From: a virus
UHGV virus genome: UHGV-2053148
DNA: 35,104 bases
Reading direction: 5' to 3' (one strand)
Shown here: positions 653 to 18,331 of the stretch, one piece after another
Position numbering within the stretch: the first letter of the stretch is position 1
Layout: each line of letters begins with the position of its first letter
Notes under the pieces: generated by a model
What the model was told of the DNA's origin: nothing
What the model saw: only the letters and a program-made list of their open reading frames with translations
The model's database searches: none
Position numbers and translations under genes: made by a program

Positions 653-658
653 CAGACC

Positions 659-2032: not shown

Positions 2033-2033
2033 G

Positions 2034-2062
2034 GTTGACAATATATCAACGTATCAATATAT
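2034..2062 (+). promoter_or_regulatory. Sigma70-like promoter (TTGACA - 17 nt - TATATG) upstream of the tRNA-like gene
   Basis: TTGACA at 2034-2039, 17-nt AT-rich spacer, TATATG at 2057-2062. Sits in the 243-bp non-coding gap after terL. Confidence 0.4.
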
Positions 2063-2079
2063 GAAGATATGTAATTAAT

Positions 2080-2153: not shown

Positions 2154-2275
2154 AACTTTTCCTTTCTTTTCGCCGCAGGTTTAACGCCGTCAAAAATATC
2201 CTCAACGCCCCGAAGCTGGTCGCCCAACAGGAGACCAGAATCAAGGATCTTGAAACGGAACTCACCCGGCGAGCG

Positions 2276-3541
2276 TTGACGGAACAGAGCCGGAAGCCTA
2301 ACCGGCCACAGTGGTACGAATACTGGGATCCGTTACAGGGAGCCGACCTGCAAACCCTGATTGACGCCCGGAACGAAGCGCGGCGTGGAGCCTTTGCCCG
2401 CCAGATGCTCATCTGGGACGAGGTCATCTATTCGGACGGGCTGCTGGGCATGCTCTACTCCCGGCTCATTGAAAGCGTTTCCATGCAGGGATGGAAGATT
2501 GACGCCGCGGACGACAGCCCGGAAGCGCAGAGCCAGAAAAACGCGCTGGAAGAATTCTATCACTCCGTCACCGGACTTCAACAGGCTTTCGGTCAGCTGG
2601 CTTCCGCCATGTTCTACGGTTACGCCCACCTCCAATACATTGAGGACGCCTGGGGCCGCCGCTTTGAATTCATCCCCCAACGCTATTGGGTCCGCCCCGG
2701 CGCGCTGAATGAATGGCAGTTCAACCCCCAGTGCTACATTGGGGTCGACACAGGGGAAAGCGTGGAAGAAGAAACGCTCGTGATCATGGAGCACCGGAAC
2801 CCCATTCTTTTCCCGGCAACCCGCGCCTCTTTTGAGCGCAACCACGCCAAAGTGACGTGGGACAACCACATGGACCGCTACGGAAGCGCCCCTGCCATCA
2901 TCACGGCTCCCAAAGACGCGAGCCCCGCCATCATGGACGCGCTGGAACGGGCCTGTGAGCAGCTTAAATCCGGCGCATCCATCGTGCTGCCTCCAGGCTG
3001 CACCGCGGAACCGTTGAAAGCCTCCAACATCAACGAAAACTATTTCCTATCCCGCATCAACATGGCCGACAAGGACCAGGTGCGGTTTGTGATGGCCGGC
3101 ACCCTGACCGTTCTGAATGAATCAGGATCCGGCACGCTGGCCGGGGGAGCGCACACGGATAGCTGGAATTCGGTCGTCTCCGCGGTCTGTTCCAAGGTCG
3201 CCGAAGCTTTTAACGCCGCCATCAGCCCGCTTGTTCTGGGAGACGGCGAACCGCTGGCCCGCCTCCACATCACCTTTGACACCGTCCAGACGCCATTGCA
3301 GAAGGCCGAGGAAATCGCCGCCCTTGCGGACGGAGGCGTCCGTCCGGAGAAAACCGAAATCGAAGAAAAGATCGGCATGTCGATCGAGGACTCGAGGGAG
3401 CCCGTTCCGGCGATGGCGGCAGTCAACAGGGATGGCTCCGCATCCCTCATTCCTCCCGACGCCTACGAACAGCTGCAGCAGATGATTTACGCCGGCCTCA
3501 TGAAAGGATTTACCGATGATCAGTTCCAGACAAATCAATGA
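2276..3541 (+). CDS. Portal protein (Mu gp29 / DUF935-like). ORF-track start is TTG 2276; the alternative in-frame CAGG start at 2177 is 24 nt after the tRNA-like gene.
   Basis: Sits immediately after terL. N-terminal region resembles DUF935 portals (ADLQTLIDARNEARRGAFARQMLIWDEVIYSDGLLGMLYSRL). The upstream in-frame stretch from 2177 reads MFNAVKNILNAPKLVAQQETRIKDLETEL, which looks coding. Confidence 0.65.
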   Translation: MTEQSRKPNRPQWYEYWDPLQGADLQTLIDARNEARRGAFARQMLIWDEVIYSDGLLGMLYSRLIESVSMQGWKIDAADDSPEAQSQKNALEEFYHSVTGLQQAFGQLASAMFYGYAHLQYIEDAWGRRFEFIPQRYWVRPGALNEWQFNPQCYIGVDTGESVEEETLVIMEHRNPILFPATRASFERNHAKVTWDNHMDRYGSAPAIITAPKDASPAIMDALERACEQLKSGASIVLPPGCTAEPLKASNINENYFLSRINMADKDQVRFVMAGTLTVLNESGSGTLAGGAHTDSWNSVVSAVCSKVAEAFNAAISPLVLGDGEPLARLHITFDTVQTPLQKAEEIAALADGGVRPEKTEIEEKIGMSIEDSREPVPAMAAVNRDGSASLIPPDAYEQLQQMIYAGLMKGFTDDQFQTNQ

Positions 3542-4631
3542 CCTGTCCAGGCCCGCCAACGGCTGGTTCCACATTGAAAAAAGCGGGGACCATGACGTCG
3601 ACTACGGCGAAGGCCCCGCCGTGCTGCGCATCGACGAGCAGGCGATCAGGGACATGGTGGACGACTTCAACGCCCGCACCTTTGACGGCCCTGGCATGCT
3701 CATCGACGGCGACCACCTGAGCCACGACCTTTCCCGCGATACGCGGGCGCTCGGATGGCTCAAGAAGCTGGACACCTACCGAGACCCTTCCGGCACGCTG
3801 GAACTGTACGGGTTCATCGAATGGACGCCGCGCGGACTGAAGATGCTGGAGGACAAAGAATACACGCAATCCTCCACGGAATACGGCGACGGGATGTCCT
3901 TCAAAGACGGAGTTTATCGCCCGTCACGGTTGACCGGATTTGCCCTGACCAACCGCCCCCGAATCAAGGGCAAGCGGCCGCTGGTCAATCGACAGACTTC
4001 CCCCGCCTCTGACGAGGCCGGGGGCGACACCAAAAGCCCCACCGAAGAGGGGGAAACAAACCAGAACACCAATATGGACAACGACGATAGAGAATATCCG
4101 TCCAAGGAAATGGACAAGGCCCAGCGGGCCCTGTTTGATTCCCTGCTTGACAAGCTGGATGTCGAATTTGACGGCACCGACGACATGAGCAGGGCTATCC
4201 TCGGACGCCTTGACGAACTGCTCTCGCTGGAAAAGCGTGAGAAAGACCACGTGAACGCCGAAGTGGACGACGCCGTCAGCACGTACGAAAACGCGCTGGA
4301 CGAAGAAGAACGCAAGGAATTCACGGAAGAACGCCGGGAAGAGCTGAAAAACTCTCTCCGGGAAAGCCCCGCCGCGCTGGACGCCTTTGTCAGGGCGCTC
4401 AACCGCCAGACTCAGCCCAAGAACAAAGAGGAGACGGAAAGGAAAGATCCGCCGAAAAGGCAGCCCCTGAACCGCCGCGCTACCCTGACGCCTCCCAACC
4501 CATTCCGCAAGAAGGAATCCATTGACGGATTCAACAACCGCGTGAACGAACTGATCAAGGACGGCATGAAGCGCTATGACGCCTACCAGAAAGCGACCGA
4601 AGAAGGCTTCATTGTCTCCGCCAACCGATAA
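3516..4631 (+). CDS. Prohead protease / scaffold fusion (Mu I-like protease N-domain plus acidic coiled-coil scaffold C-domain)
   Basis: N-terminus GWFHIEKSGDHDVDYGEGPAVLRIDEQAIRDMVDDFNARTFDGPGMLIDGDHLS matches the Mu-like prophage protein I family. C-terminal half is acidic and coiled-coil. Overlaps the portal stop. Confidence 0.65.
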   Translation: MISSRQINDLSRPANGWFHIEKSGDHDVDYGEGPAVLRIDEQAIRDMVDDFNARTFDGPGMLIDGDHLSHDLSRDTRALGWLKKLDTYRDPSGTLELYGFIEWTPRGLKMLEDKEYTQSSTEYGDGMSFKDGVYRPSRLTGFALTNRPRIKGKRPLVNRQTSPASDEAGGDTKSPTEEGETNQNTNMDNDDREYPSKEMDKAQRALFDSLLDKLDVEFDGTDDMSRAILGRLDELLSLEKREKDHVNAEVDDAVSTYENALDEEERKEFTEERREELKNSLRESPAALDAFVRALNRQTQPKNKEETERKDPPKRQPLNRRATLTPPNPFRKKESIDGFNNRVNELIKDGMKRYDAYQKATEEGFIVSANR

Positions 4632-4649
4632 CTCAATCCATATCAACAA

Positions 4650-5081
4650 ATGCCATCACTCAACGTAACCCAGAAAAGCGCCATCGTCTATTTCAACGCC
4701 CCGGAAGGCGTTGACCTGTGCGGACAGGAAGGAACCGTCGTGGCGCTGACCGCCAATCCTGACATCCCCGAATTTGTTGGGACTCCATTGTCCGCCATTC
4801 CTACGCAGACGCAGCTGCTCGGCGTCGTCCTGCAGGGACAGCCCAACAAGGGGACCTGCGTCGCCGCTCTCGTCGGCATGTATGCCGGCCTGATCAAGGC
4901 GGCCCTATCCGACACGCCCGGAACCATCAACGCCGGAACGCCCGTCACCATCACGGCCAACGGGACATGGAAGGCCGCCGCCAGCGGCGACACCGTCTAC
5001 GCGCGCGTCATTCATGCCCAGTGGGAACAGGGCCTTGTGGAAATCGGCTTCGTTCCGTCCTACCAGGTCGCCGCAGCCTAA
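4650..5081 (+). CDS. Hypothetical head protein (possible decoration or accessory capsid protein)
   Basis: 143-aa Gly/Thr/Ala-rich beta-type protein between the scaffold and the major capsid gene. Confidence 0.35.
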   Translation: MPSLNVTQKSAIVYFNAPEGVDLCGQEGTVVALTANPDIPEFVGTPLSAIPTQTQLLGVVLQGQPNKGTCVAALVGMYAGLIKAALSDTPGTINAGTPVTITANGTWKAAASGDTVYARVIHAQWEQGLVEIGFVPSYQVAAA

Positions 5082-5241
5082 CTATTAACCCCAACCAACA
5101 GAAAGACCAAGAACAAGGGCTACTCCATTTTGCTCCGCCGTTCAGTTCACCGATGTCCTGACCTCCTATTCCGCGGGGTCCGGCAACACTGAAGAGAACT
5201 CCATCATCAGCCGCATCGCTCCGATCGTCCCGGTCTATGAC

Positions 5242-6042
5242 ATGAATTTTCAGTATAAGGTCTGGGACAAGAAAGCGGCCTTCACCGTCCAGCCCATCCA
5301 GGTGGGACCGGGCGAATCTCCCCGCCAGACCGTCCTGCGCGGAAGAAACGAAACAGACACCCTTCAGGGCTACGGCTTGACGCTGCCCATCCCTGACGCC
5401 TTGCTGGGCGTCAACCGGGAAAAGGCGCAGGCCATCACCCTGGCGGAATACAAACTCATCGAATCCCAGTTTGTGACGTCGTACGAATACGAACGCGCCA
5501 AGCTTCTGATGAGCCAGCTTCCGGCCGCTTCCGGGATGGGCGACTGGGCCAACCAGCAGAAAAACCCGTTGGCGGATCTGGACCAGGCGATCCTGTCCAT
5601 CAATGCCGCAACCGGACACATGCCGAACACGATTGTCTTCGGCATCAACGCATGGCAGCTGCTTCGCTCCAACACGCTCGCGCGTCAGGTGGTTTCCTTC
5701 AACAGCGTCGGCCTGTTCAACGAAGACCTGCTTCGCATGGCGCTGATCCGTCCCATCCGGGATATTTACATCGCCTCCATGCCGTACCGCGACGCTTCCG
5801 GCGACGCGAAAACCATCATGGAAAACGAAGTCTATGTCTTATACAAGGAAGATTCCCCGACGCAGTTCGACGCCTCCGCCGTCAAAACCTTCGGGCTTTC
5901 CGGCAAGCTTCGCCGCGAAGTCATCACCGAATACAAGCCGACGCCGGCCTTGACGCTCGTCACCAACCGGGTCTACTCGCTGACCAAGCTGACCAACCCC
6001 GGCGCCATCATCCGCATCGACGCGACGGCCTCCTCCGATTAA
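5242..6042 (+). CDS. Major capsid protein (Mu T-like / HK97 fold)
   Basis: 266-aa protein placed after protease/scaffold in a Mu-like head module. Canonical ATG start. The upstream in-frame region is Pro/Arg-rich and non-coding-like. Confidence 0.7.
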   Translation: MNFQYKVWDKKAAFTVQPIQVGPGESPRQTVLRGRNETDTLQGYGLTLPIPDALLGVNREKAQAITLAEYKLIESQFVTSYEYERAKLLMSQLPAASGMGDWANQQKNPLADLDQAILSINAATGHMPNTIVFGINAWQLLRSNTLARQVVSFNSVGLFNEDLLRMALIRPIRDIYIASMPYRDASGDAKTIMENEVYVLYKEDSPTQFDASAVKTFGLSGKLRREVITEYKPTPALTLVTNRVYSLTKLTNPGAIIRIDATASSD

Positions 6043-6061
6043 CCCCAACCCCGCCTCCATC

Positions 6062-6538
6062 ATGTCCGCCTTTCCTGCCTGGTCCACGATTTCCACCGAC
6101 GAAGCCGATCGGCTGCTCGGCCTCAACACCGCCGAACGCGACGCCCTGGTGACCGCCGGGGAGCAGCGCAGCCTGGACTATCGGGACGTCATGATGGAGG
6201 CGGTCAACGATGTCTGCATGACCATCCGCGGGGCGCTGGCCAACAACCTCGCCCTGCGGCAATCCCTACAAAACAGCGGCATGTACGACATCCCGCAAAG
6301 CATGCGGTCACTGGCATGGCCGCTAATCATCCGGCAGCTCTACCTGCGCTACCAGATCAACCTGACCGAGACGCGCCAGAAGGCCGCCGAATCGGCGGAC
6401 GCGATGCTGGCGCTCTACGCCAAAGGGGACATGCTGCCGGAAAGCGTGGACGGTTCCGCGCCCGCGGATCCCGCCTACATGATGCCGCGCTACACGCGCC
6501 GCCCCTGGTTCAACCCCATGCGAAGCACCTACCGATGA
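6062..6538 (+). CDS. Hypothetical head completion or head-tail connector protein
   Basis: 158-aa ORF directly after the capsid gene. Its stop overlaps the next gene's start (ATGA). Confidence 0.4.
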   Translation: MSAFPAWSTISTDEADRLLGLNTAERDALVTAGEQRSLDYRDVMMEAVNDVCMTIRGALANNLALRQSLQNSGMYDIPQSMRSLAWPLIIRQLYLRYQINLTETRQKAAESADAMLALYAKGDMLPESVDGSAPADPAYMMPRYTRRPWFNPMRSTYR

Positions 6539-7671
6539 TGACCGCCGCCCAGATGGAGATGATCGCCAACGACTACGCCGAACGCGCCTTCTTCGTGTCC
6601 GGGGTAGAACCCGGCGTCATCCTGTCCGATTTCGAGGACAAGGCGTCCCAGGTCGCCTCGGGGGCCTTGAGCTACGAGGAAGCGCAGCAGGCCATCCGCG
6701 AAACCCTGCGCCAGCAGGGCTACCGCCCCCCGGCGACGGGGCAGGGAGGCATTCAGGATTTGTCCTCCTGGGTCCGTATCCAGGTCGTCATGGAAACAAA
6801 CGCGGCCATGGCCCACGGCTACCGGAACTGGTACAACTGGACGATGGACGACGACACGGCCGCCTTCAAATTTTACCGCTCCCAGGGGCGGGAAGACCCG
6901 CGCTATTGGGCCGAACGCTGGAACCGTGCCCGGGCCGGGCTGGAAGAAGAAGCCACGGAAGCGGTATCATCCGGTTTCATCCGCGGAGAAACAGTCGGCT
7001 ATGCGCTGGCGGCCTCCGACATCTGGATCCGCCTCTCGCGGTTCGGAACTCCCTACCCGCCCTTTGACTACCTGTCCGGAATGAACATTGCTCCCATCGG
7101 AGCCGAAGAAGCCCGCGCTGCCGGGCTGGACGTTTCCAGCGTCCGTCCCGCTCCGGCCAGCTTCAACGCCACACTGGAAAGCAATGCCCAGGGTGTGACG
7201 GAAGCCAACAAGAAGAAGATACGCGGCATCCTGAAAGACGCCCTGCGCGTCAACAACGAAAGCGACGGCAATACCACCTTTGTCTATACCGACCCGAACG
7301 GCACGCGGCCTTACACGGACGCGGAACTGGCGGAACTCCTGTCCGGGGATTTCCCGGAAGAGATCCCCTTGCGGCAGGCCCAGGCCTTCCGCCTGGCGGC
7401 AGCCGGGGGAGCGGTGGCCGGAACGCTGGCATCCCTCTACCTGGACCGCCTGCTGGACCGCCTGTTTTCCGAACCGGAAGGCGTCTGGTTCGCCCGGCCC
7501 GCTGATGTGGCTGCCGCGTCGTCCCGCCAGTTCATCCCCGTCTCCCGGAAGGAAGAGGGGGAATTCACCTGGCGCCTTACCTCCGGGCACGTCAAAAAAG
7601 TGGAAGACGTCGCCGGAGCTATCCGCGTGGAACTTCCAACCCCTTACGTTTTGCCCGTCAAATGGCTGTAA
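6535..7671 (+). CDS. Hypothetical virion protein (378 aa). The long ORF-track N-extension from 6316 was rejected.
   Basis: ATGATG at 6535 overlaps the upstream stop (translational coupling). The ORF-track N-terminus from 6316 overlaps the previous gene out of frame and is Arg/Ala/Pro junk. Confidence 0.45.
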   Translation: MMTAAQMEMIANDYAERAFFVSGVEPGVILSDFEDKASQVASGALSYEEAQQAIRETLRQQGYRPPATGQGGIQDLSSWVRIQVVMETNAAMAHGYRNWYNWTMDDDTAAFKFYRSQGREDPRYWAERWNRARAGLEEEATEAVSSGFIRGETVGYALAASDIWIRLSRFGTPYPPFDYLSGMNIAPIGAEEARAAGLDVSSVRPAPASFNATLESNAQGVTEANKKKIRGILKDALRVNNESDGNTTFVYTDPNGTRPYTDAELAELLSGDFPEEIPLRQAQAFRLAAAGGAVAGTLASLYLDRLLDRLFSEPEGVWFARPADVAAASSRQFIPVSRKEEGEFTWRLTSGHVKKVEDVAGAIRVELPTPYVLPVKWL

Positions 7672-8327
7672 CCGTCCATATCGACCAGACCGCGATTGAC
7701 CGGGCGTTTGCCGAGATGGAGCCGTCCGCGGCCCGGCACAAAACAGCCATCCGCAAAGCGGGCGTCGCCCTCAGCCTGCTCATCCAGGAAACCCTGCGCC
7801 AGCAGGGCAAGGACTACTACGATGGCGCGGCGGACGCCACCTCCATGGAAGAAACCGCCGAGGGCGTCAGCGTCTCCATCGCCTGGCGCGGCATCGGCCT
7901 GCACTGGCTCGGCACGCAGGGCTATCTGGGCGGCCCGCTCCGGCCCACCGGGCGCACCTCGGAAATCACGGGGCAGCCGATCCAAAACCTCGCGATTCCC
8001 ACCCTCAACGCCCCGCGCGGGCATGGAGGGGCCCGGAGCATTTACAGCGCCGGGTTCCGCAAAGACGATTTACAATTCATCCCGTCCAGAAACGGAGGAC
8101 GCAACGGCAATGTGACCGGCGTCCTCATCCTCAAGACAGCGCAGTCGTCCACCGGAAAGAAAGCGGCCCGGAAGCTGTTCCGCAAAGGAGCCAGAACCGG
8201 GGACGTCCTCTACGTGCTGTGCCGCGAAGTCACGATCCCGCCCACGCCGGGGATCCTCCCGACGCTGGACCGGATGGCGCAGCGCGCCGCGGAAACCTAC
8301 CTTGCCAACATCGGAAACGAACCATGA
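7662..8327 (+). CDS. Hypothetical virion morphogenesis or neck protein
   Basis: 221-aa ORF. Its start overlaps the previous stop by 10 nt. Structural-module context. Confidence 0.4.
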   Translation: MAVTVHIDQTAIDRAFAEMEPSAARHKTAIRKAGVALSLLIQETLRQQGKDYYDGAADATSMEETAEGVSVSIAWRGIGLHWLGTQGYLGGPLRPTGRTSEITGQPIQNLAIPTLNAPRGHGGARSIYSAGFRKDDLQFIPSRNGGRNGNVTGVLILKTAQSSTGKKAARKLFRKGARTGDVLYVLCREVTIPPTPGILPTLDRMAQRAAETYLANIGNEP

Positions 8328-8836
8328 TCCCATCCATCGACCAGACCATGTGCCGGCGCCTCATTGAACGCCTCAAGAGCCTGGGAGCGCTGAAGTGCCA
8401 CATCTTCGAACGGCCCTTCGACCCCCAGTATGCCGCCAATGACATCATCATGTCGGCGATGGGAAACAACGGCGTGGTGCTGGTGTGTCCGGGAGACGCG
8501 GACGAATACCAGGACGGGCACGGGCAGACGGAAGCGCCGACCATGTGGCGGCAGTATTTCATCATTGCCGCCGTCTACCACAACGCGGCCCTGTTCCCCC
8601 CGGAATGCCTGACGCCCGCCTACTACCTGCGGGCGGTAGGCGACGAAATTGAAGAAGCCCTGTGGAACTGGAACCCTTTTCCCTTTGCCGCGCCTGCGAT
8701 GATGAAACCGAAAATCAAAGGCCGTTTTTCCTCTTCCGCCGTCATCGACGGCGAGAAGCGGCAAATGAACGTTTTGACCGTGGATTACCGCGTCCCGGTC
8801 AATATTAACATCAGAAACAACCCACAATTCCAATGA
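8324..8836 (+). CDS. Hypothetical neck or tail-completion protein (170 aa)
   Basis: ATG 8324 overlaps the upstream TGA (ATGA). Sequence MIPSIDQTMCRRLIERLKSL... Confidence 0.4.
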   Translation: MIPSIDQTMCRRLIERLKSLGALKCHIFERPFDPQYAANDIIMSAMGNNGVVLVCPGDADEYQDGHGQTEAPTMWRQYFIIAAVYHNAALFPPECLTPAYYLRAVGDEIEEALWNWNPFPFAAPAMMKPKIKGRFSSSAVIDGEKRQMNVLTVDYRVPVNINIRNNPQFQ

Positions 8837-9141
8837 GCAGAAGAGCAACAAAGAAGAAACAGGACGCCAGGCAAGTCCCGGCGGAACCCGAAGCAGCCGG
8901 GGAATCTCCCGACCAAACACAGGCAACGCCGGATGAACTCCGGGAATCCGACGATGAACCATCGTCCACGACCGGCCAAACGCCGGCAACGCCCGGCAAG
9001 AAGGCCGTCCGGGTCATTTGCACCCGTGCGGAACTGGACGGGGGGCTGGTCATCAGCCTCTCCATGAAAACCGACACCCCGGAACTTCCCGCGACCATCG
9101 CGGAAGCTCTGGCAACCCTCAACCTTGTTGACATCAAATGA
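8833..9141 (+). CDS. Hypothetical protein (102 aa, low-complexity acidic N-terminus)
   Basis: ATGA coupling to the previous gene. Confidence 0.35.
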   Translation: MSRRATKKKQDARQVPAEPEAAGESPDQTQATPDELRESDDEPSSTTGQTPATPGKKAVRVICTRAELDGGLVISLSMKTDTPELPATIAEALATLNLVDIK

Positions 9142-9335
9142 GCAAAGCAACTGCAGCCAACACCGAACCGGAGAAGAAGACGGAGCAGGCCGCCGTCATC
9201 GACACGAAGATCCGTTTTCTCGCAAGGAAAACACATATAGGGCGTTCAACGTTCTTGAAAGGAGCCGAAATCCGTGTTACGAAAGAACTCGCCGATAAGC
9301 TGGAAGCCGACGGCAAGGCAACCATCATCTACTAA
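9138..9335 (+). CDS. Hypothetical small protein (65 aa)
   Basis: ATGA coupling. Lys-rich. Confidence 0.3.
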   Translation: MSKATAANTEPEKKTEQAAVIDTKIRFLARKTHIGRSTFLKGAEIRVTKELADKLEADGKATIIY

Positions 9336-9442
9336 CCATTTCAAGCATCAGGGCAACTACATACGATCCCACCTTTACCAACCGCAATGTAACGCCGCAG
9401 ATTACCGGCGTTCTGGCTATTTTCCTCCCCGACGGCATCAAA

Positions 9443-10000
9443 GTGACCGAGGATGAGGGAGCCTCTTACGTTACCGGCCCCGGGCAATATCCGGAGCCTC
9501 CCGCCAATCCTCCGACCGATCCGACCGCCGGTCCGGAAGCGCCCTGGGTGAGTTTCGGGCTGTTGGGCGCGTTCCAGTCCGTCGCCACACAGGTTGAAGG
9601 GGAAGTAACGCGCTTTTACGGCGGCAATCTCGGCTACCGGCAGCAGCGCAAGAACACGACCACCGGCAAGCGGTTGACGTTCACCACGCCGGACATGTCC
9701 CCGGAATATTTCCAACTGGCGTTCGCGCTGGGAGCTGCCCCCGCCAACGGAGAGGAATCGACCACCGTCGGCCATGGCGGGGATAATAAAATTTCCGGCC
9801 ATATCCGTTTCTGGTATCAGAACGACGTGGGGACGGTGTACTTGACGGGCGTGGCGCACGGAGATTTGCGCCTCCTGCAGGACCCCGAACACACCACGGC
9901 GATCGCTTCACCCCAGTTCGAGTTCGAAATGGATTACCGCGGCGACTACAATTTCACGCCTTCCAATGTGCAGGACGTGACGCCGACGCCGGGTTCCTGA
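9443..10000 (+). CDS. Putative major tail (tube) protein. ORF-track start is GTG 9443; an alternative in-frame CAGG start at 9350 is preceded by AACCATT.
   Basis: 185-aa beta-rich protein after the connector genes, followed by a strong terminator (typical for abundant tail tube genes). The upstream in-frame stretch MATTYDPTFTNRNVTPQITGVLAIFLPDGIKV looks coding. Confidence 0.4.
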   Translation: MTEDEGASYVTGPGQYPEPPANPPTDPTAGPEAPWVSFGLLGAFQSVATQVEGEVTRFYGGNLGYRQQRKNTTTGKRLTFTTPDMSPEYFQLAFALGAAPANGEESTTVGHGGDNKISGHIRFWYQNDVGTVYLTGVAHGDLRLLQDPEHTTAIASPQFEFEMDYRGDYNFTPSNVQDVTPTPGS

Positions 10001-10001
10001 C

Positions 10002-12059
10002 GTGTTTCACCAGGGGGCGCGCTGCGCCCCCGCATCCTCTTTTTTTCCCAGGCAGCAGGCAGGCAAATACGATATCCGGACCGTCACGGGGCTGAACCAG
10101 TCGCTGGTCGTCCGTGTGGTAGATTTTCAGGGGGATCCCGTGGACATGAGCGGCGTCACCCTGCGCGGCGCTGTCCGTCTCAAGACGGGCGTCGCCGAGT
10201 TCGGCTTTTCCCGCGATGACGAGGGTAACGGCGTGCTTTCCTGGGCTTCGGTGCCTGCGGGCAGGTGGTCCTACGACGTCTTCATGGACGACGGAAACGA
10301 GGAAAGTCCGCTGCTCTACGGCTGCTTTGTTTCTGCGGGCCGGGTGACGCCGGACTTGCCCGACGAACAGCAGGCCGTGGCGGGCGCGGTCGTCGTGCAG
10401 CTGCCGGAAGGAAGCGGCTGCGTGCAGGTCATGCTTGACAACGCGTCCAGCGCCGCCTGGTACGCGGAACAGGCCAAAAAGTACGCCGAGAATTTTAATC
10501 TGTCCGTGGGTCAGGTCACCACCGGGGAACCGGGGACGCCCGCCAACGCGGAAGCCGTCAAGGGAACTGAATCAGGATCCTATCTGCTCAATTTCACGAT
10601 TCCCCGCGGGGATGTTGGTCCTCAGGGACCGTCAGGCCCGCAGGGTGAACGGGGTGAAACCGGCCCCGAAGGGCCGCAAGGCCCACGCGGCGAAACCGGG
10701 GAACGTGGACCTCAGGGAGATACGGGCGAGCAGGGACCGAAGGGAGAGACAGGCCCGGCGGGGCCCCAAGGCCCGGAGGGCCCCCAGGGGCCGGAAGGTC
10801 CGGCAGGACCCCAGGGACCACAAGGGGAAAAGGGAGAGCCCGGGACGCTGACGTCCAACGTCGGCGACGTCAACATCGGGGGAGCCCTGACCGCTGAATC
10901 GGCTACTATCAACGGGCCTCTGGTCGTCAACAACCCGGACGGAAGCGGAAGCGCCGGAACCCTGAATCAGATTTACGGAATCACCAGGTTTTATCAGTCC
11001 GTTGATCTTCGTTCGGGCGGCTGGCTGCGCGGGACATTCATGGTAGAGACCGGCATCCTGAATATTTCCCAGGGCGCCAGCTTCAACTGCGCGGGGGCGG
11101 CCACGTTCTCAAGCGCCGTCAACGCCAACGGCGGCATCAACATCCCGCTTGCCGCGGGCGCGCCGGCCAATGAATCCGGCGTCAACCGGCTTTATGCGGC
11201 GGGCATGGGAGGCGCGGCCAATACTTATACGGCAGGGGCGTTTCTGAATACGGACTCCCTGACCACGACCGGGACGGCCACGGTTACTAAAACGGTTCCC
11301 TGGCAGATGGCCCGCATCGGTATTCCCGCGGGATCTCACACAACCATTCAGGCTCCCTTTGAAGGACCCTCTTCCCAATGGAATTACTCTTCCTGGGCCG
11401 GCTTTTCGTTTGTCTGGCGGGCTACCGCCGCCGCAAAGCTGACGATGGGCATCGGACGCGGAGCGAAAACAATCAGGACGGACCTCACCACGGATTCCTA
11501 CACGATCATTCCGGGGAATGGCCTGGCCTTTAATTCCGGGGAGATTCTGGACATCACCTTTGACAATGTGAGAGACACGGCCCGCAACGGCTACACGGTG
11601 CGGGTGCGTGAGATTTACGCGCTCAACTCCACGGATGGGTGGCAGGTCAAGACGACGACCAGCTTTATTCCCGCGACGCAGAACGAGCCCATCCCGTGGA
11701 CGGTCTGCAAGATTATTTACCAGCAGCAGGCGGTTGCCAACAGCAGCGTTTATGAAAACCTGGGAGGGCTCTGGCTGATGGTCACGGGAGCGCAAACCAA
11801 TAATCTGTACAAAATCGCCACTTGCCGCGGCGTCTCCAATTTTGAGACCGGCGTCGGCGTTTCCCGGTGGGTGACGGACGTGATCAACATCACCAGCGGA
11901 ACGGCTTCCGTTTACGCCGGGCCCGGCGAATATGCCTATTACCAGCCGGGGAATATCAACCCGCTTTTCTACGGGTTGGACGCGATAGGAACGAATGCCG
12001 TTGAATCCGAGGAAACCGCAGCTTTTGAAGATATTAACGTACCCATTGAAGAATCATGA
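10002..12059 (+). CDS. Tail fiber protein with collagen-like triple-helix repeats. The true start is probably downstream of the terminator (CAGG 10050 or ATG 10146).
   Basis: 26 consecutive G-X-Y triplets ([76 protein letters not shown]). C-terminal beta-rich receptor-binding region. Confidence 0.8.
10013..10046 (+). terminator. Rho-independent terminator or attenuator (8-bp GC stem GGGGGCGC/GCGCCCCC, loop GCT, then TCTTTTTTT)
   Basis: Perfect 8-bp GC stem at 10013-10031 followed by a T7 run at 10040-10046. It lies inside the ORF-track N-terminal extension of the fiber gene. Confidence 0.6.
10608..10844 (+). repeat. Collagen-like (Gly-X-Y)n coding repeat inside the tail fiber gene
   Basis: About 79 codons of GXY. 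Gives a GGNCCN-periodic DNA repeat and spurious ORFs on both strands. Confidence 0.8.
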
Positions 12060-12460
12060 ACGACGGAGAAATACAAATTCAGTTTCCTAAGCCCGGTAAC
12101 TGGCAGGAATTCATCCTGACAGCCATCTATCAGGATGCGGACGGGTTCACCCGTGTGGCCCGTTACACGCCTGCCGAAATTCCAGCGGAACAGGCCCCGG
12201 CCATGCAGGCGGTAGTGGCCGCGTTGGTTGGATTGTCGGAGCCATGGAAGGCCTGTCAGGTATGGGCGCGGCTGTGTGTGACTATGAATTATGATACTGC
12301 AAATGATCATAGCGAATATGTTTTTGCCGTGGATTTGACCGTGGAGGCCGTCAATCCTCAGGGCGGGCGCAGGGTGTTTACTTCCCGTGATTACCCGGCT
12401 TTTGTGATCACTGATCCTGCCGCCGTGGAGTTTTTCAAGTTTTTCACTACTAATCAATAA
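12056..12460 (+). CDS. Hypothetical protein downstream of the fiber (possible fiber assembly or accessory protein)
   Basis: ATGA overlap with the fiber stop. 134 aa. Confidence 0.4.
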   Translation: MNDGEIQIQFPKPGNWQEFILTAIYQDADGFTRVARYTPAEIPAEQAPAMQAVVAALVGLSEPWKACQVWARLCVTMNYDTANDHSEYVFAVDLTVEAVNPQGGRRVFTSRDYPAFVITDPAAVEFFKFFTTNQ

Positions 12461-12472
12461 CAACATAATCAT

Positions 12473-12925
12473 ATGACTACTAATAATCAATGCAATCATG
12501 CCGAGGCGATAGCCAAGGATTTTTACAGGGTAGTTTCCGAGGATAACGGCGGCGGCTGGAAGTCCTGGGAAGATTTAACCGATTCACAGCGGTCCGCGTT
12601 TGTGCGATTGGCGCAGCAAGCCCTGCCCATTATTGGCAGGCATGCGCTGGGGGATGTCCGTGACTATCTCGGTATTAAGGCTGCCGGCAAGTCTAGCTGG
12701 TGGGAAAAGGCCCTGTATGCCGCCGGAGCAGTTATTGCCGGGGCTATCCTTGGCGGCTTGGGAATGTCCCTCTCCGGCTGCGGGCACTCCGTGGACGTGA
12801 CGCCGGAAAAGACGGTGGTCTGTAAGGACGGCTCCTGCCTGGTGCTGGAACCGGGGCATATCTCCTACAGTCAGTCCCAGCCGGAAACGGATGTTCCTCC
12901 CATCGTGCAAACCATCAAGAAATAA
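12473..12925 (+). CDS. Membrane protein (single central TM), possible lysis-associated protein
   Basis: TM segment ALYAAGAVIAGAILGGLGMSL followed by a Cys-containing C-terminal tail. Heads a cluster that ends in the endolysin. Confidence 0.35.
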   Translation: MTTNNQCNHAEAIAKDFYRVVSEDNGGGWKSWEDLTDSQRSAFVRLAQQALPIIGRHALGDVRDYLGIKAAGKSSWWEKALYAAGAVIAGAILGGLGMSLSGCGHSVDVTPEKTVVCKDGSCLVLEPGHISYSQSQPETDVPPIVQTIKK

Positions 12926-12929
12926 CGCC

Positions 12930-13181
12930 ATGTGTAAGCTCTCCGAAGTACCGGCGCGGTTCCTGGATTTTGCCAAGGCTTCCCCCCTGCTTGCCTGCGT
13001 CATACTCTCGCTGGTCATTTGCGGTGCCGCCTGCTGGTACATCGGAGATGTCATGGGGCACCACAATGACAGGCTTTGCGACCTGATGACCATGCAGACA
13101 CAGGCCCAGGTGGAGACCGCCAAAGTGCTCCAACTGCTTGCCGTCAGAATCGAAAACATAGAAAGAAAACTGGAAAAGTGA
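12930..13181 (+). CDS. Small membrane protein with N-terminal TM plus coiled-coil C-terminus (holin or i-spanin-like)
   Basis: ATG 12930 (MCKLSEV...). TM ASPLLACVILSLVICGAACWYIG, then a heptad-like C-terminus ending RIENIERKLEK. Confidence 0.4.
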   Translation: MCKLSEVPARFLDFAKASPLLACVILSLVICGAACWYIGDVMGHHNDRLCDLMTMQTQAQVETAKVLQLLAVRIENIERKLEK

Positions 13182-13330
13182 ATAAGCTGCTGAACCCTTC
13201 CGTTCTGCTTCCCTTGATAGGGTGCGTGATGGGCATTGCTTTTGCCGCATTCGACGACACGGTGGCGGGTGTTGCGGCGTTCTGTTTTCCCATCGCTACT
13301 ATGGTACTCTTGCGAGCATCGGGAAACTGA
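13178..13330 (+). CDS. Small hydrophobic two-segment membrane protein (holin-like). Has a possible lipobox LIGC.
   Basis: GTG 13178 overlaps the previous stop. VNKLLNPSVLLPLIGCVMGIAFAAFDDTVAGVAAFCFPIATMVLL. Immediately upstream of the endolysin. Confidence 0.35.
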   Translation: MNKLLNPSVLLPLIGCVMGIAFAAFDDTVAGVAAFCFPIATMVLLRASGN

Positions 13331-13395
13331 CCAACTGTAAAGTTTTTCTTACAAGTTCAACAATATTAACAATCAACCATTAAAGGAGAATAATC

Positions 13396-13926
13396 AGGAA
13401 AATAGCCATTGATATAGGCCACGCCAACAACACCGGAACCCGCGGAAACGGGCTTGAAGAACACGCCGTCGTCACGACTATCGCCGAACGCCTCGCCCCC
13501 ATGCTGGAACGGCTGGGAGCCCGGGTGGACGTGATTGACTTCCCCAAGATGACCAATGCCCAGGACTTGAGCGATACCATCAAGGCCGCCAACGAAGGAG
13601 GCTATGACTTCGGAATTTCATTGCATTGCGATTCGGCCGACAATCCCCAGGCTCATGGCGCTCATGTATGTTTCTACCCGGGAAGCGTTAAAGGAAGCCG
13701 GCTTGCCATATGCATCGCGGAACCTCTTTCCCGGCTGCTGCCCGGACGGGCCAACACTGTGCAGTCGCGCCCGGGACTGGCCGTCCTGAAAAAGACCCGC
13801 TGTCCGTGGGTGCTCTGCGAATGCGGCTTCATCACCAATCCTGAAAACGCCTCTATTTTGAAGGACCATCCCGGACGCATTGCCGAAGCCATTGCGGAAG
13901 GGGTGAAGGACTACCTCAACCAGTAA
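13396..13926 (+). CDS. N-acetylmuramoyl-L-alanine amidase (Amidase_3) endolysin. The first ATG (13501) is internal; proposed AGG start at 13396 with a perfect SD.
   Basis: The upstream in-frame stretch encodes KIAIDIGHANNTGTRGNGLEEHAVVTTIAERLAPMLERLGARVDVIDF, the conserved Zn-binding N-terminal core of Amidase_3. Only TAA 13381-13383 lies upstream of it. AAGGAG at 13383-13388, a 7-nt spacer, then CAGG at 13395-13398. The C-terminus carries amidase motifs (VLCECGFITN). Confidence 0.85.
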   Translation, partial: RKIAIDIGHANNTGTRGNGLEEHAVVTTIAERLAPMLERLGARVDVIDFPKMTNAQDLSDTIKAANEGGYDFGISLHCDSADNPQAHGAHVCFYPGSVKGSRLAICIAEPLSRLLPGRANTVQSRPGLAVLKKTRCPWVLCECGFITNPENASILKDHPGRIAEAIAEGVKDYLNQ

Positions 13927-13932
13927 CCGCCC

Positions 13933-15447
13933 ATGACTTACCAGGCCCCCTACGCGGCGCGCTACGTTTCCGCCGCCGGCAACCAGATCCAGCTGCTCAA
14001 CCTCTGGGACGATACGCCGGAGCCTCCCCGCTTCGGCGGGTCCATGGAGGCATTTGAAACGTCGCTGGTAGACGGACCGCGAGCGTTCGCGCAGGGGCTG
14101 GGAAGCGCTGTGGAGCAGCGCACCATCGCGTTTTACCGCTGGTTTACGGATTATCAGGATATGGCCTCCTATCAGGAGAACCTGGCGTTGTGGCTGGCCA
14201 GCAATCAGAACGGCTATCTGTACCTGCAGTTCGCCGAACAGCCGCAATGGCGGTTTGCCGCCGTCATCACCGGCTACCAGTTTGAGACGGAGAACTTCGT
14301 TCCTCCGCCGTCTCCCGAAGACGGCTATCTGTGCCTGCTGGTCACGCTGACCATGACGGTCACCGACCGGACCCCGGACAATTCCAACTGGATATTCAGC
14401 GTGACGCCCTCTTCTTTCGACGTTCCCGTCAAGGGAGGCGAATACACCGTTAATGTGGAATCGTCGTTCAGCCCTGGACCGGTAGGTCAGGGGTGGCAGA
14501 TTGCCGACGTTTCCGAAGGATTAACCGTTTCCGATATCGTCAACGGCAACAACGGGACATTCAAGGTTATCGTCGCGGCCAATGAAGGAGACCAGGACAG
14601 GACCATGTCGCTCCAGGTCATTCAGGACGGAACAGGACAGGCTGTTGAGGTTGAATTTCGTCAGCTTCAACCCTCTTACTCATTCAGCCTTGCTCCAACC
14701 CAGGTACAGGTTCCCGTTACTGGCGGAAGCTACCAGGTCCAGGTGACTTCCTATTATGACCCGGGAGCAGTCAGCGTTGACTGGACGCCCAATTCTCCCA
14801 GCTCTTCCGTTGTCATTTCCGATATCACGAACGGAAATAACGGGTCATTCACGTTAACCGCGGCGCCCAATGAAGGAGCGGCCGGCTCCGTCGTCGTTTC
14901 CGCGACACAGGCGGATTCCGGTTTAAAACAGACAATCCGCGTATTGAGGGCAGGACTGGTCACCCGAAATCATCAGCTTCCCCCGCCCGGAGGGGAATAC
15001 TCGGATAATCCGATGAGTTATTCCTCATGGAGGTTTATTCCCTCGGACGTTTATCCGGACTTCCCGGAAGGCAACCCCGAAGGAAAGGGACTGACGCTGC
15101 AGGAAATCATCACGACGAACCCCACCAGCTCCAATTCCGGCACGTTAACGCTTTACCGGGTGGAAAACGGGTCTGCCTCTCTTCTGGCGACCAGCAGCGA
15201 GGCGGTTTCCACCGGAGAGGGCGGAAACGTGAAATGGACGTTTTCTCCCGGCGTGGAAATCCGCTCGGACTGGCAGCTGGTCGTGGAAAACCAGAACGGA
15301 ATCTATGAGCAGCATGCCATGCTGGAAAGCCCCCAGTCATTTGACGGTCTCGGAGACGAGGCCTACCCCGCGGCAGCCACGGCGGCCGGGCGTACGTTCG
15401 GATTATCCCTCGTCATCCGCTACACTTCCACCGAATACCCATCTTAA
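13933..15447 (+). CDS. Tail protein with two tandem Ig-like/BACON-like beta-sandwich repeats (possible major tail protein with decoration domains, or an adhesin)
   Basis: Two internal repeats of about 90 aa (residues ~155-245 and ~250-340) with conserved W...G.G...V.V..N.G..R pattern. Lies upstream of the chaperone-like ORF and the TMP. Confidence 0.5.
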   Translation: MTYQAPYAARYVSAAGNQIQLLNLWDDTPEPPRFGGSMEAFETSLVDGPRAFAQGLGSAVEQRTIAFYRWFTDYQDMASYQENLALWLASNQNGYLYLQFAEQPQWRFAAVITGYQFETENFVPPPSPEDGYLCLLVTLTMTVTDRTPDNSNWIFSVTPSSFDVPVKGGEYTVNVESSFSPGPVGQGWQIADVSEGLTVSDIVNGNNGTFKVIVAANEGDQDRTMSLQVIQDGTGQAVEVEFRQLQPSYSFSLAPTQVQVPVTGGSYQVQVTSYYDPGAVSVDWTPNSPSSSVVISDITNGNNGSFTLTAAPNEGAAGSVVVSATQADSGLKQTIRVLRAGLVTRNHQLPPPGGEYSDNPMSYSSWRFIPSDVYPDFPEGNPEGKGLTLQEIITTNPTSSNSGTLTLYRVENGSASLLATSSEAVSTGEGGNVKWTFSPGVEIRSDWQLVVENQNGIYEQHAMLESPQSFDGLGDEAYPAAATAAGRTFGLSLVIRYTSTEYPS

Positions 15448-15461
15448 CAGAATAATCCATC

Positions 15462-15743
15462 ATGAACGAACAACAACAAAACGGAATAGAACGGCTTTTC
15501 GTCGAATTTGCCGAAGAGTGCGGCAAGAACCCGAACCTGAACCAGGCGGTGCAGGAATTGAAGGAAAGCGTCTTTGCTGCCTCTCAAGCCGCCGGCGTCG
15601 ATCCTTCCCATGCCTTCGGCGTCATCATCCGCGATATGATGATTCTGGAATCCTTGCAGAAACGCGTGGAAGAATCCCGCAACGCCCTCACCGCCGGGAA
15701 ACTGCCCGCTTTCGTCATCGAAGAAGCCCGCGAACAACAATAA
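15462..15743 (+). CDS. Putative tail assembly chaperone (93 aa, acidic, helical)
   Basis: Small acidic ORF immediately upstream of the tape-measure-like gene. Confidence 0.35.
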   Translation: MNEQQQNGIERLFVEFAEECGKNPNLNQAVQELKESVFAASQAAGVDPSHAFGVIIRDMMILESLQKRVEESRNALTAGKLPAFVIEEAREQQ

Positions 15744-15761
15744 CCCTCCACCTTTACCACC

Positions 15762-17648
15762 ATGGCCACCAAGAAAGAAATTGAAATCAAACTCAAGTCC
15801 ACGCTGGACGGAAAAGGCGTGGAAGAAGCAAAACAGCAGATCGACGCGCTGAACAAGTCGACGGAACAACTTGATAAGGGGAGCCAGCAGGCAACCCGAA
15901 GTGTGAAGAACATGGGGCAGGGGGCCTTGCAGGCTGCCTACTTCGTTGATGATTTGCAGTACGGAATCCGGGGAATCATGAACAACATTCCCGGGCTGGT
16001 GATGGGATTCGGAGGCGGCGCAGGGCTGGCCGGCGCGATGTCGCTTGCCGTCCTCGCCGGGGCGAAGCTTTACGAATGGATGGGGAAGACGGAAGACAAG
16101 TCGGCGGATCTCGCCAAAAAAATGAAGGAGCATAGCAAAGAGATTGCCGAAGCTTCTCGTCAGGCTATCCGGGCAAGTTATCAGGCTTTGCAGGAATTCA
16201 ACCAGCAAGAACGCACCAAGACCGTTAATGAAGAGTATCAAAACTATGTAAAGGGAATTACCCGGGAATTTGAATATCAGACGGAAGAGCTTGAAAAACA
16301 AATTCGCTTGAGACGGGAGGAAGCGGCTCGCCAGAAAGGCATTGATACACGCCAGGCGGAGCTTGACCGCGTCAACTTGGAAGTGGGCTACCAGGAAGGA
16401 AGAATCACTAAGAGGCAGCGAGATTACGGCTTGATGATGGTTGATCAGAATCTGGACCAGAAAATCAGACAGCGTGATTTAGGCGTGGAGCAGGCTAATT
16501 ATATGGATATTGGCAAACAGCTTGCGGAGGCAGTCAAGGCCCGAGATGCTGCGGAAGCTCATGCTTTTGATATGCAATTCAAGCAAGGGAACCTTCCTTC
16601 TCTTCAAAATGTTCTTGGCCTTTTACAGCAGCAAGAACGATCTCAACGGAGTATTGATAGCTTAGAAAGTCAACTTCCTGATTTACGCGGGGAAATATGG
16701 GAGAAAAATAAAGAGTATAATAAAGTTTTGAAGAGAAATGGTGGTTATGAAACTACATATTCCAGTCTAGTAAAAAAAGAAATTGATGATTTAGTTGCGA
16801 AGCAGGATCGGCTTGTTGAATTAATCAAAACGGCGAGGGAAGAGGCTAATCAGGCAAATGATCAGTTGAAATCTTTTCAAGATGTGCTTGGAGAAGGAGG
16901 CGTAAATCTTGAATTAGACTATAGCCAAGGAACAGATGTCAATAGTCGCTTCAAACAAGTATCAGATGCAGTAGAAGAGTTTAAGAAGAATACGGATGCC
17001 GCGAAAAAACAGTTTGATAAATTAACGGAGAAAGCCGGTTCTTTGGGGGATGCAATGGCTTCGACCGAAGCATCTATCAAAAACATGGAACAAATTGATG
17101 CTATTCAAAATCAAATAGACGCCGGCAAGGTTAAATCATTTAACATGCAAAGAGACAGGGAAGAAGCAGAGGAAGCCCGAAGAAATGAAGAAAAAATAAA
17201 GAAGGCTCGTGAACGGGCCGAAAGGGAGGCTCAAAAGCAGACTGCCGAGAGGCAGCAGGCGATGATCCGCGGCATTACTCTTGAAGGCGTTCCCGAGCAT
17301 CCTACAGCCCAGCAACGCGCCCGGATTGCGGCTGCCCGCGAAGCTTTGAATGCAGGGAAGAAACGCCTTGCGGAAAGCATTTCTGACAAAGATACGGAAA
17401 TCGACCCCAGCGAGATTCAAGGGGCGTTTGACGTGATGGAAAACGTATTGAGAGAAAGCGGACAATACACTAAAAAATTGATGGATTATTTGAAAATCAT
17501 AGCAATAGCACAGGCTAGTAAGGTAAATGCCGTGCAAGCAGATACAAAAAAATATGTAGATGCTAAATTCGAGGAAATCTTGAAAATAGTACAGAAGGGC
17601 AACGGAAGATTGCAAACAGGGATAAACCGGCTTGCCGGAGGCTTTTAA
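15762..17648 (+). CDS. Tape measure protein (putative). Coiled-coil-rich with a Gly-rich hydrophobic segment. The 3' half is low-GC.
   Basis: 628 aa, long heptad-rich helices, hydrophobic GFGGGAGLAGAMSLAVLAGA segment. GC drops sharply from about 16560 onward. Confidence 0.5.
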   Translation: MATKKEIEIKLKSTLDGKGVEEAKQQIDALNKSTEQLDKGSQQATRSVKNMGQGALQAAYFVDDLQYGIRGIMNNIPGLVMGFGGGAGLAGAMSLAVLAGAKLYEWMGKTEDKSADLAKKMKEHSKEIAEASRQAIRASYQALQEFNQQERTKTVNEEYQNYVKGITREFEYQTEELEKQIRLRREEAARQKGIDTRQAELDRVNLEVGYQEGRITKRQRDYGLMMVDQNLDQKIRQRDLGVEQANYMDIGKQLAEAVKARDAAEAHAFDMQFKQGNLPSLQNVLGLLQQQERSQRSIDSLESQLPDLRGEIWEKNKEYNKVLKRNGGYETTYSSLVKKEIDDLVAKQDRLVELIKTAREEANQANDQLKSFQDVLGEGGVNLELDYSQGTDVNSRFKQVSDAVEEFKKNTDAAKKQFDKLTEKAGSLGDAMASTEASIKNMEQIDAIQNQIDAGKVKSFNMQRDREEAEEARRNEEKIKKARERAEREAQKQTAERQQAMIRGITLEGVPEHPTAQQRARIAAAREALNAGKKRLAESISDKDTEIDPSEIQGAFDVMENVLRESGQYTKKLMDYLKIIAIAQASKVNAVQADTKKYVDAKFEEILKIVQKGNGRLQTGINRLAGGF

Positions 17649-17695
17649 CCAGCTTTTAGGCTTGCACTAACGCCGATTTATAGCACCATACCACT

Positions 17696-18280: not shown

Positions 18281-18331
18281 ACCACTAACCATTTTACAAG
18301 CAGCAGGAACCACGACATCACCATCAATGAC

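Follow-up and report, generated by a model that had tools for sequence, protein, structure and literature searches.

Translation initiation without a Shine–Dalgarno (SD) sequence, or at codons other than AUG, has been described in several systems. One class consists of SD-independent, unstructured, A/C/U-rich leaders (S1-dependent initiation in SD-scarce bacteria such as Bacteroidota and Akkermansia, CA-repeat enhancers and the epsilon element of T7 gene 10), in which A-rich or A/U-rich tracts have been described. Akkermansia has been reported to be SD-scarce despite a canonical, conserved CCUCC (PMC10783764). For the Escherichia coli initiator transfer RNA (tRNA), a fourth base pair between mRNA position -1 and tRNA nucleotide (nt) 37 has been shown experimentally: position-37 variants of tRNA-fMet, A37G included, favor mRNAs that can pair with nt 37 through their -1 base (PMC10018350). 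Such pairing had been shown earlier in chloroplasts. Two further relevant systems are the engineered initiator tRNAs of E. coli with anticodons other than CAU (amber and other non-AUG), which combine an initiator body with an altered anticodon, and the leaderless mRNAs, such as that of lambda cI transcribed from pRM, with AUG as the 5'-terminal codon. The subject of the present analysis is the heptanucleotide AACCATT, which recurs in late-gene leaders of the UHGV virus genome UHGV-2053148 (the window, i.e. the whole stretch of 35,104 nt that was analyzed), where eight late genes start with AGG and the only tRNA gene has the anticodon CCU (hereafter, tRNA(CCU)).

AACCATT behaves like the known SD-independent leaders, and the motif alone matters little: it is a real but ordinary leader word and not a signal for AGG starts. 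The likeness consists in the lack of complementarity to the anti-SD, the low G content, the near absence of structure, the loose position 10–26 nt before the start and the compatibility with any start codon. The differences are that, unlike the original model of T7 gene 10 epsilon, no 16S complement exists here, and that the A-rich or A/U-rich tracts of the known leaders give way to AACC(A/C). The main result is that AACCATT is not to be read as an 'AGG enhancer'. What is remarkable about this locus is the AGG-initiation system itself, with eight AGG-started late genes beside a phage tRNA(CCU) that has an initiator-type body, and with ATG/AGG polymorphism. The literature searched contained no account of the AACCATT motif or of an AGG initiator encoded naturally by a phage.

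AACCATT in the late-gene leaders

The AGG starts of the eight late genes are located at 143, 659, 2177, 5116, 9350, 10050, 13396 and 18305.

143–652, + strand: coding sequence (CDS) of terS, an Sf6-type small terminase, AGG start; Pfam PF20901 matches from residue 17 (E = 2e-29) and no canonical start occurs before 245.
659–2032, + strand: terL CDS, with an AGG start 6 nt past the terS stop and a spacer without AACCATT.
2177–3541, + strand: portal CDS (Mu-type; Pfam PF06074), with an AGG start 23 nt past the tRNA 3' end.
5116–6042, + strand: major capsid protein CDS (PHROG major head protein), AGG start, A at -1.
9350–10000, + strand: CDS of a late protein of 216 amino acids (aa), with an AGG start kept in 13 distinct leader variants.
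10050–12059, + strand: collagen-like tail-fiber CDS (PHROG tail-fiber matches), AGG start (CAGG), leader without AACCATT.
13396–13926, + strand: endolysin (Amidase_3) CDS, AGG start; position 1 of the Pfam PF01520 profile aligns to residue 3.
18305–20488, + strand: CDS of a 727-aa late protein, AGG start.

No Pfam or PHROGs match was obtained for the 216-aa and 727-aa proteins; the names 'tube' and 'distal tail' are unverified. The four AACCATT strings quoted in the initial annotation (123–145, 9331–9352, 13375–13398 and 18284–18307) are present as written, with 13 nt (terS), 9 nt (9350), 14 nt (endolysin) and 11 nt (18305) between the end of the motif and AGG. A fifth copy is followed by CAGG one base later.

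123–129, + strand: AACCATT before terS; AACCAT closes the 17-nt promoter spacer, and the T that follows opens the -10 element.
9331–9352, + strand: initiation region of the 216-aa gene, with the TAA stop (9333–9335), AACCATT (9334–9340), TTCAAGCATC and AGG (9350–9352).
11342–11348, + strand: the fifth copy, inside the tail-fiber gene and with no start function.
13375–13398, + strand: initiation region of the endolysin gene, with AACCATT (13375–13381), AAGGAG (13383–13388) and AGG (13396–13398).
18284–18307, + strand: initiation region of the 727-aa gene, with ACT, AACCATT, TTACAAGCAGC and AGG.

The segment 9328–9352 corresponds to the 14-nt spacer and start codon of the 216-aa gene, which has no ATG, GTG or TTG from the in-frame stop at 9296–9298 to 9443. 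An AGG start behind the fifth copy was considered and rejected: that AGG opens only a 30-codon out-of-frame open reading frame (ORF).

The initial annotation set the four copies against a random expectation of about two per strand. The four leader copies stand, but there is no genome-wide enrichment: the five copies in the window, all on the + strand, compare with 5.0 ± 2.1 expected on both strands, and the fifth is intragenic. The excess is seen in the late-gene spacers (485 nt), which hold four of the five copies compared with 0.16 expected under a first-order Markov model of the spacers (P(≥4) ~1e-4). Because AACCATT was chosen after the fact, the probability that any 7-mer is common to at least four late spacers, ~0.01, is the fairer figure, and the recurrence is moderately beyond chance. 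Moreover, the four copies are not independent because they fall into two pairs of leaders that are alike over a longer stretch. The leaders at 9350 and 18305 are, as originally noted, near-identical, with ~21 nt in common (TAACCATTT(0-2)CAAGCANCAGG), and the exact CAAGCANCAGG block is confined to this pair of starts, in the window as in every relative. The terS and endolysin leaders have AACCATTAAA in common.

Several observations dissociate AACCATT from the AGG codon. The AACCATTAAAGGAGAATA leader of the endolysin gene is the same in ATG alleles and in AGG alleles. The motif at this gene predates AGG because the more distant endolysin homologs all use ATG. In the window, four of the eight AGG starts (terL, portal, capsid and tail fiber) have no copy. 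Furthermore, the word occurs in Moulinsart and Chantilly, unrelated Akkermansia phages that lack tRNA genes and whose annotated starts are all ATG or GTG: in Moulinsart, it lies 7 nt before the tape-measure ATG and 18 nt before the endolysin ATG, and in Chantilly, it abuts the ATG of the gene at 27724–28275. The ATG endolysin alleles, the four AGG starts without a copy and these two phages all run counter to an AGG-specific element that would be dispensable at AUG.

Neither is the motif conserved more strongly than the flanking leader bases at the 216-aa, capsid and terS genes. Among the relatives, the 216-aa leader carries AACCATT, AACCGTT, AATCATT, AACTTTT or AAACCCATT, with an invariant AGCA.CAGG, and in the alignment of this leader, the motif columns vary more than this start-adjacent block. 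The capsid leader has AACCATT, AACCAAC or AATCAAT, with an invariant TAGAAAGAC; the window has AACCAAC where some relatives have AACCATT. At terS, the motif bases are wholly replaced in other promoter variants. Only at the 18305 gene is AACCATT conserved. A separate observation on the capsid leader (5090–5115 and relatives) is that its invariant TAGAAAGAC is a purine-rich block ~15 nt before AGG. With ATG alleles that keep the leader, half of the AGG starts devoid of the motif, variable motif columns and tRNA-less phages that carry the word, the suggestion that AACCATT is a dedicated AGG enhancer does not hold.

What the late leaders do have in common is a general character that extends over both start-codon classes. 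AGG and ATG leaders are alike in composition (A 0.34, C 0.34–0.36, G 0.10–0.11), and both fold weakly, with a mean minimum free energy (MFE) of -3.0 (AGG) and -2.1 (ATG) compared with -10.0 kcal/mol for random windows (P = 6e-5 and 5e-10, respectively), as is the case in low-G, weakly folding, SD-independent leaders. SD-like cores are present in 2 of the 24 late leaders (1–21252) versus 6 of the 20 right-arm (early) genes (23780–34859). AGG triplets number 2 in the late leaders versus 12 in the right-arm leaders; these low numbers are consistent with false AGG starts being avoided in the presence of the tRNA. Of the 24 late leaders, 15 contain AACC (7.2 in shuffles), namely 6 of 8 with AGG and 9 of 16 with ATG, and CAACC in 11 (2.5 in shuffles). 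The AACC-type words are loosely positioned, 10–26 nt upstream of the start, in leaders of both classes, and persist across relatives. In the Moulinsart leaders, AACC is found in 7 of 20, compared with 1.9 expected.

The reading that we favor, with a probability of roughly 0.55, is that AACCATT is one extension of a strongly over-represented AACC-type word (often CAACC or TAACC) in the late leaders of this phage family, which, with AUG and AGG starts alike, are SD-less, G-poor, A/C-rich and unstructured, rather than a discrete AGG signal. The general leader composition would make AACCATT likely, and further copies would be added by local overlaps, with the TAA stop (9333–9335) at the 216-aa gene and with the -10 TAAACT at terS, as well as by the two leader pairs with longer similarity (9350/18305, and terS/endolysin with AACCATTAAA). 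The AACC word would help the zone where the ribosome lands to stay single-stranded and devoid of G, of AGG and of triplets resembling an SD sequence. Such triplets could be taken for starts by a tRNA(CCU) initiator, so that avoidance of G would remove false starts; the leader region may also bind protein S1. The AGG start is specified by the AGG codon itself together with the invariant -1 base, C in seven of the eight genes, and for terS, a sigma-70-type promoter would put the mRNA 5' end at or within 1–2 nt of AGG. For recognizing an AGG start, two rules can now be given: the leader is low in G, and the base at -1 is invariant, being C in most genes and A in the capsid gene. AACCATT is not one of these rules.

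Some of the evidence weighs against this reading. The role that it gives to the AACC-type words is one that we infer. In the window, the exact 7-mer precedes four of the eight AGG-started late genes and none of the 16 ATG-started ones, and AACCA is found in 6 of 8 AGG leaders versus 1 of 16 ATG leaders, although the contrast weakens across relatives. The recurrence of AACCATT still exceeds the composition-matched null (P ~0.01 for any 7-mer). Finally, the 18305 leader is kept from AACC to AGG (AACCATTTTACAAGCAGC) across at least four different upstream mosaic junctions; with ~21 nt in common with the non-homologous 216-aa gene, it looks like a functional unit and not bare composition.

The AGG start codons, position -1 and tRNA(CCU)

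The initial annotation placed AACCATT in front of proposed AGG starts, and these sites are indeed the leaders of genuine AGG-initiated late genes. All eight genes have an in-frame AGG and no ATG, GTG or TTG from the upstream in-frame stop to the conserved N-terminal sequence. The frames were checked by wobble phase (third-position variation against ~30 relatives), which supports every one of them, and AGG is kept at the aligned residue 1 of the eight genes across these relatives. In many endolysin alleles, the very codon that is AGG in the window reads ATG. L015, the most divergent of the relatives, has ATG exactly at the capsid AGG codon and, in terL, one codon downstream of AGG. The substitution of ATG at the same codon, the conservation of residue 1 and the wobble-phase frames establish AGG as the start codon of the eight late genes. 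The near-cognate AUC is not the start because the in-frame ATC that precedes some of the AGGs is not conserved, varying among relatives (ACC, CCC and TCC too).

Individual genes give the same picture. The AGG of terS is kept in relatives, the portal gene has AGG and C at -1 in all 12–13 distinct leader variants, and of the 13 distinct variants of the tail-fiber gene, 12 have AGG and every one has C at -1. The alignment at 9350 contains a 1-nt indel and no codon-like variation just 5' of AGG, with third-position changes just 3' of it, and the 65 nt from 13331 to 13395, before the endolysin AGG, are intergenic by wobble phase. Extra AGG starts near 6043–6540 and 7700–8330 were rejected: wobble phase and sequence point to ATGA-overlap ATG starts at 6535 and 8324.

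The endolysin start (window 13396–13398; relatives L001, L035, L043, L045, L048 and L050) is polymorphic in the population, being AGG or ATG behind the same leader. The -1 base is always C in the AGG alleles; it is C or A in the ATG alleles, and T only in more distant homologs. The endolysin AAGGAG is the sole SD-like sequence among the AGG starts. The AGG within it (13384–13386) shares the frame of the start and comes immediately after a TAA; a further start at 13384, by an initiator that reads AGG, is conceivable and would add four residues.

Genes of this kind are shortened by gene callers. The public gene calls for the European Nucleotide Archive (ENA) metagenome contigs L153–L156 truncate the AGG-started genes: for the amidase, AGG alleles are called from an internal ATG, at 141 aa, and ATG alleles at 176 aa, and the 18305 gene, 727 aa from AGG, is called at 718 aa from a downstream TTG.

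The initial annotation also ascribed C at -1 to all of its seven proposed starts and suggested that this base pairs with G37 of the CCU tRNA. Seven starts do have C, but there are eight, and the capsid gene (5116) has A at -1 in every relative; the tRNA does have G37, and the -1 preference is kept in relatives. Among the distinct AGG leader variants, -1 is C in 46 of 51, the other five being capsid leaders with A; G and T never occur. The ATG genes have C 34, A 34, G 15 and T 14 at this position. At -1, each of the seven AGG genes measured has a diversity of 0.00, compared with 0.46 at -2, the most variable leader position, and with 0.28 at -1 of the ATG genes. Within the window alone, C is at -1 in 7 of 8 AGG genes versus 7 of 16 ATG genes (one-sided P = 0.05). 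By this sequence conservation, C at -1 is under selection.

2080–2153, + strand: tRNA gene with the anticodon CCU and initiator hallmarks (ARAGORN; Rfam tRNA, 52.7 bits).

This single tRNA gene lies between terL and the portal gene and resembles initiators in part. The acceptor, CGCAGGG...CCCUGCA-A-CCA, has a C1xA72 mismatch, as initiators do; it is flagged by cmscan as non-standard at 1:72 and is kept in 27 contigs. The anticodon stem CGGGG/CCCCG provides the three G:C pairs 29-31:39-41 of initiators, and A73-CCA is encoded. The D stem GUGA/UCAC, with U11:A24 instead of the initiator A11:U24, is of the elongator type, and the anticodon is not the CAU of initiators. Of the 32 IMG/VR contigs that match the anticodon stem-loop of tRNA(CCU), 27 contain this tRNA, whose T and D arms show compensatory changes. 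No G37 or U38 variants were found in IMG/VR, where 40 extra matches include no CCU tRNA; G37 does not vary in the family, which is a narrow one. A promoter-like site, TTGACA-17-TATATG, is located just 5' of the tRNA gene (about 2035–2063).

As in the engineered non-CAU initiators, an initiator body (C1xA72, three G:C pairs) is joined to an altered anticodon, and by analogy, such a tRNA should start at its cognate non-AUG codon; unlike them, tRNA(CCU) is natural, phage-encoded and serves eight late genes. Position -1 likewise compares with the E. coli -1:nt37 quadruplet pairing. In seven of the eight genes, C faces G37, and this Watson–Crick complementarity, invariant across relatives, is kept by selection. 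The differences from E. coli tRNA-fMet(CAU) with A37 are the natural phage tRNA, the anticodon CCU, G37, the AGG codon and the A at -1 of the capsid gene. The C at -1 would thus form a fourth base pair with G37, a proposal that is well founded as a hypothesis. An invariant -1 base facing G37 would be natural evidence for a four-base interaction between start codon and anticodon, which has so far been shown only with engineered E. coli tRNAs.

Alternative explanations of the recurrence

The first alternative is that AACCATT has no function and that its copies result from duplication or exchange of leader segments, from overlaps with TAA and the terS -10 element, and from chance in an A/C-rich background. 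The arrangement of the copies as two pairs with extended similarity, the drift of the motif columns in relatives and a genome-wide count at expectation are all compatible with this explanation. It is nevertheless unlikely: AACC-type words go beyond composition, persist in diverged relatives and occur in an unrelated Akkermansia phage too, which suggests some selective cause, and the 18305 leader is kept across recombination junctions.

Under the second alternative, AACCATT or the TAACCATTT..CAAGCANC leader is a dedicated cis-enhancer that recruits ribosomes or tRNA(CCU) to AGG without an SD sequence. This is what the exact word before four AGG and no ATG starts in the window, the recurrence at P ~0.01, the near-identical 9350 and 18305 leaders (the latter kept across mosaic junctions) and the presence of AACCATT before the capsid AGG too in some relatives would lead one to expect. 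In its more specific form, the ~21-nt leader of 9350 and 18305 (TAACCAUUU(0-2)CAAGCANC-AGG), with AACCAUU as its upstream half, would be a dedicated initiation module, recognized by a phage or host factor or by a 30S subunit loaded with tRNA(CCU), so that an internal AGG is chosen without an SD sequence. We regard both the general and the specific form as quite improbable. The word stands unchanged before the ATG alleles of the endolysin gene and precedes ATG starts in tRNA-less Akkermansia phages, is absent in the window from the terL, portal, capsid and tail-fiber AGGs, varies more than the proximal bases with a spacing to AGG of 9 to 16 nt, has no complement in the 16S ribosomal RNA (rRNA), and at terS lies upstream of the predicted transcription start.

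The search for a pairing partner was negative throughout. Akkermansiaceae rRNA operons were picked with the AM1 primer sequence. Their 16S 3' end is canonical (...GGAUCACCUCCUUUCU), and AACCATT has no complementarity to its CCUCC, as an SD sequence would have. No AATGGT, ATGGTT or RRTGGTT was found in two Akkermansiaceae 16S sequences, so that the rRNA complementarity of an epsilon-type enhancer is lacking as well. Duplex energies between leaders and 16S equal those of shuffles, and only the endolysin AAGGAG pairs with the anti-SD. A search of the + strand of the window for AATGGTT, the antisense partner, yielded none. No RNA structure involving the motif was found at 9350 or 18305: both leaders have an MFE of only -2.3 kcal/mol in a 71-nt segment; that at 9350 is equaled or surpassed in stability by 198 of its 200 shuffles, and that at 18305 does not exceed its shuffles in structure.

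The third alternative, also raised in the initial annotation, is a late promoter element. AACCAT would be a -10-like hexamer (A at 2, T at 6) or the target of a late activator, so that the transcripts of four late units (packaging, tail, lysis and distal tail) would have leaders of 2–9 nt.

106–134, + strand: predicted promoter of terS, -35 to -10, with an architecture kept in 11 of the 12 distinct upstream variants.

This terS promoter consists of a -35 TTGATT (106–111), a 17-nt spacer and a -10 TAAACT (129–134), with 8 nt to the AGG at 143. Among the relatives (L002–L030), terS has 12 distinct upstream sequences, most of them unrelated in sequence, and 11 of these keep TTGAnn, a 17–18 nt spacer and TAnnnT, with the end of the -10 element 6–9 nt (usually 8) from AGG. 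The promoter scores are 8–11 of 12, and 2% of random positions reach 8. The terS mRNA is therefore predicted to be leaderless or to have a 1–2 nt leader because the -10 geometry puts its 5' end at or near AGG. It would resemble leaderless mRNAs such as that of lambda cI, with the 5' end predicted at or within 1–2 nt of the start in 11 of the 12 variants, and differ from lambda cI in that the 5'-terminal codon is AGG, not AUG; the likeness applies only to terS, not to 9350, 13396 or 18305.

The promoter reading can draw on the position of the four sites before functionally distinct late blocks, on the terS promoter that ends 8 nt before AGG, and on AACCAT being the best -10 candidate at 9350 and 18305. 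However, it is TAAACT that forms the -10 element at terS, and AACCAT belongs to the spacer of this sigma-70-type promoter, which is not conserved in sequence. The other AGG starts score at most 7 of 12, with 9350, 13396 and 18305 at most 6–7 and devoid of a conserved -35. At 18305, conservation ends at the motif, which leaves no room for a -35 or other upstream elements. At the endolysin gene, a transcription start 7 nt past the motif would remove the SD sequence that the ATG alleles keep, and the T critical for a -10 is lost in some variants (AACCGC, AAACCC). The motif itself is thus not a sigma-70 promoter element, its overlap with the terS promoter, the only one with conserved -35 and -10, is coincidental, and the third alternative is highly improbable.

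Two candidates that emerged near the motif were discarded. TTAACA-17-AATAAT, the only match of a generic promoter scan near a motif, ends 1 nt before the endolysin AGG; it was rejected because the transcription start would fall downstream of AGG and because the -10 T is lost in relatives (AATACC). The mini-ORF ATG-AAC-CAT-TAA (MNH*) before terS is treated as a coincidence, being upstream of the predicted transcription start with its TAA within the -10 element; its position reads TTG-AAC-CAG-TAA in relatives.

The last alternative is that an ACCA-UUU junction is cleaved, either by an enzyme of the RNase E type or in the course of tRNA 3'-end processing, which would produce very short leaders and leaderless-like translation. 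It is suggested by the tRNA 3' end AACCA followed in many relatives by CCATTTT directly 5' of the portal AGG (GCAACCA|CCAUUUU), by the 9350 and 18305 leaders that begin with CCAUUU right after TAA and by the apparently near-leaderless terS mRNA, but it is a matter of sequence resemblance, the motif is preceded by an acceptor-like helix neither at 9350 nor at 18305 (both -2.3 kcal/mol), and it also stands before ordinary ATG genes; this alternative, too, is highly improbable.

Prophage context and other observations

The left 21 kb of the window is 89% identical to the Akkermansia phage DTMo-2021a. This part encodes terS, terL, the Mu-type portal, the major capsid protein, the collagen-like tail fiber and the Amidase_3 endolysin. 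Akkermansia metagenome contigs contain the same element as a prophage, next to genes for tRNA-Glu and a Na/Ala symporter, and the phage family is one of widespread Akkermansia gut prophages. The tRNA-Glu(UUC) gene (9790–9865 in L155/L153) has the host symporter gene on one side and the integrase of the prophage on the other, and is probably the attachment site of the prophage.

10013–10046, + strand: G+C-rich hairpin (8 bp) followed by a T7 run, resembling an intrinsic terminator, between the 216-aa gene and the tail-fiber AGG.

The stem of this hairpin shows compensatory changes among relatives, and the tail-fiber AGG is located 3 nt past the T run. In a tblastn extrapolation, roughly half of the relatives have ACG, not ATG, at the aligned start of the 96-aa gene (12891), which may reflect misalignment or another non-canonical start. 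The late-gene stops (650–20488) also share a context: in 12 of the 13 TAA stops that precede the listed late-gene spacers, TAA is followed by C, and TAAC is 15-fold enriched in these spacers. In E. coli, C after the stop codon is regarded as a weak termination context.

The intergenic region 5' of the endolysin gene is partly homologous in Moulinsart (L157, 18082–18124) and in the window (13340–13398). The common stretch is TTACAAGTTC...AAC..TAACAAT, in phages that are otherwise unrelated, so that a lysis cassette regulatory region common to the two is possible.

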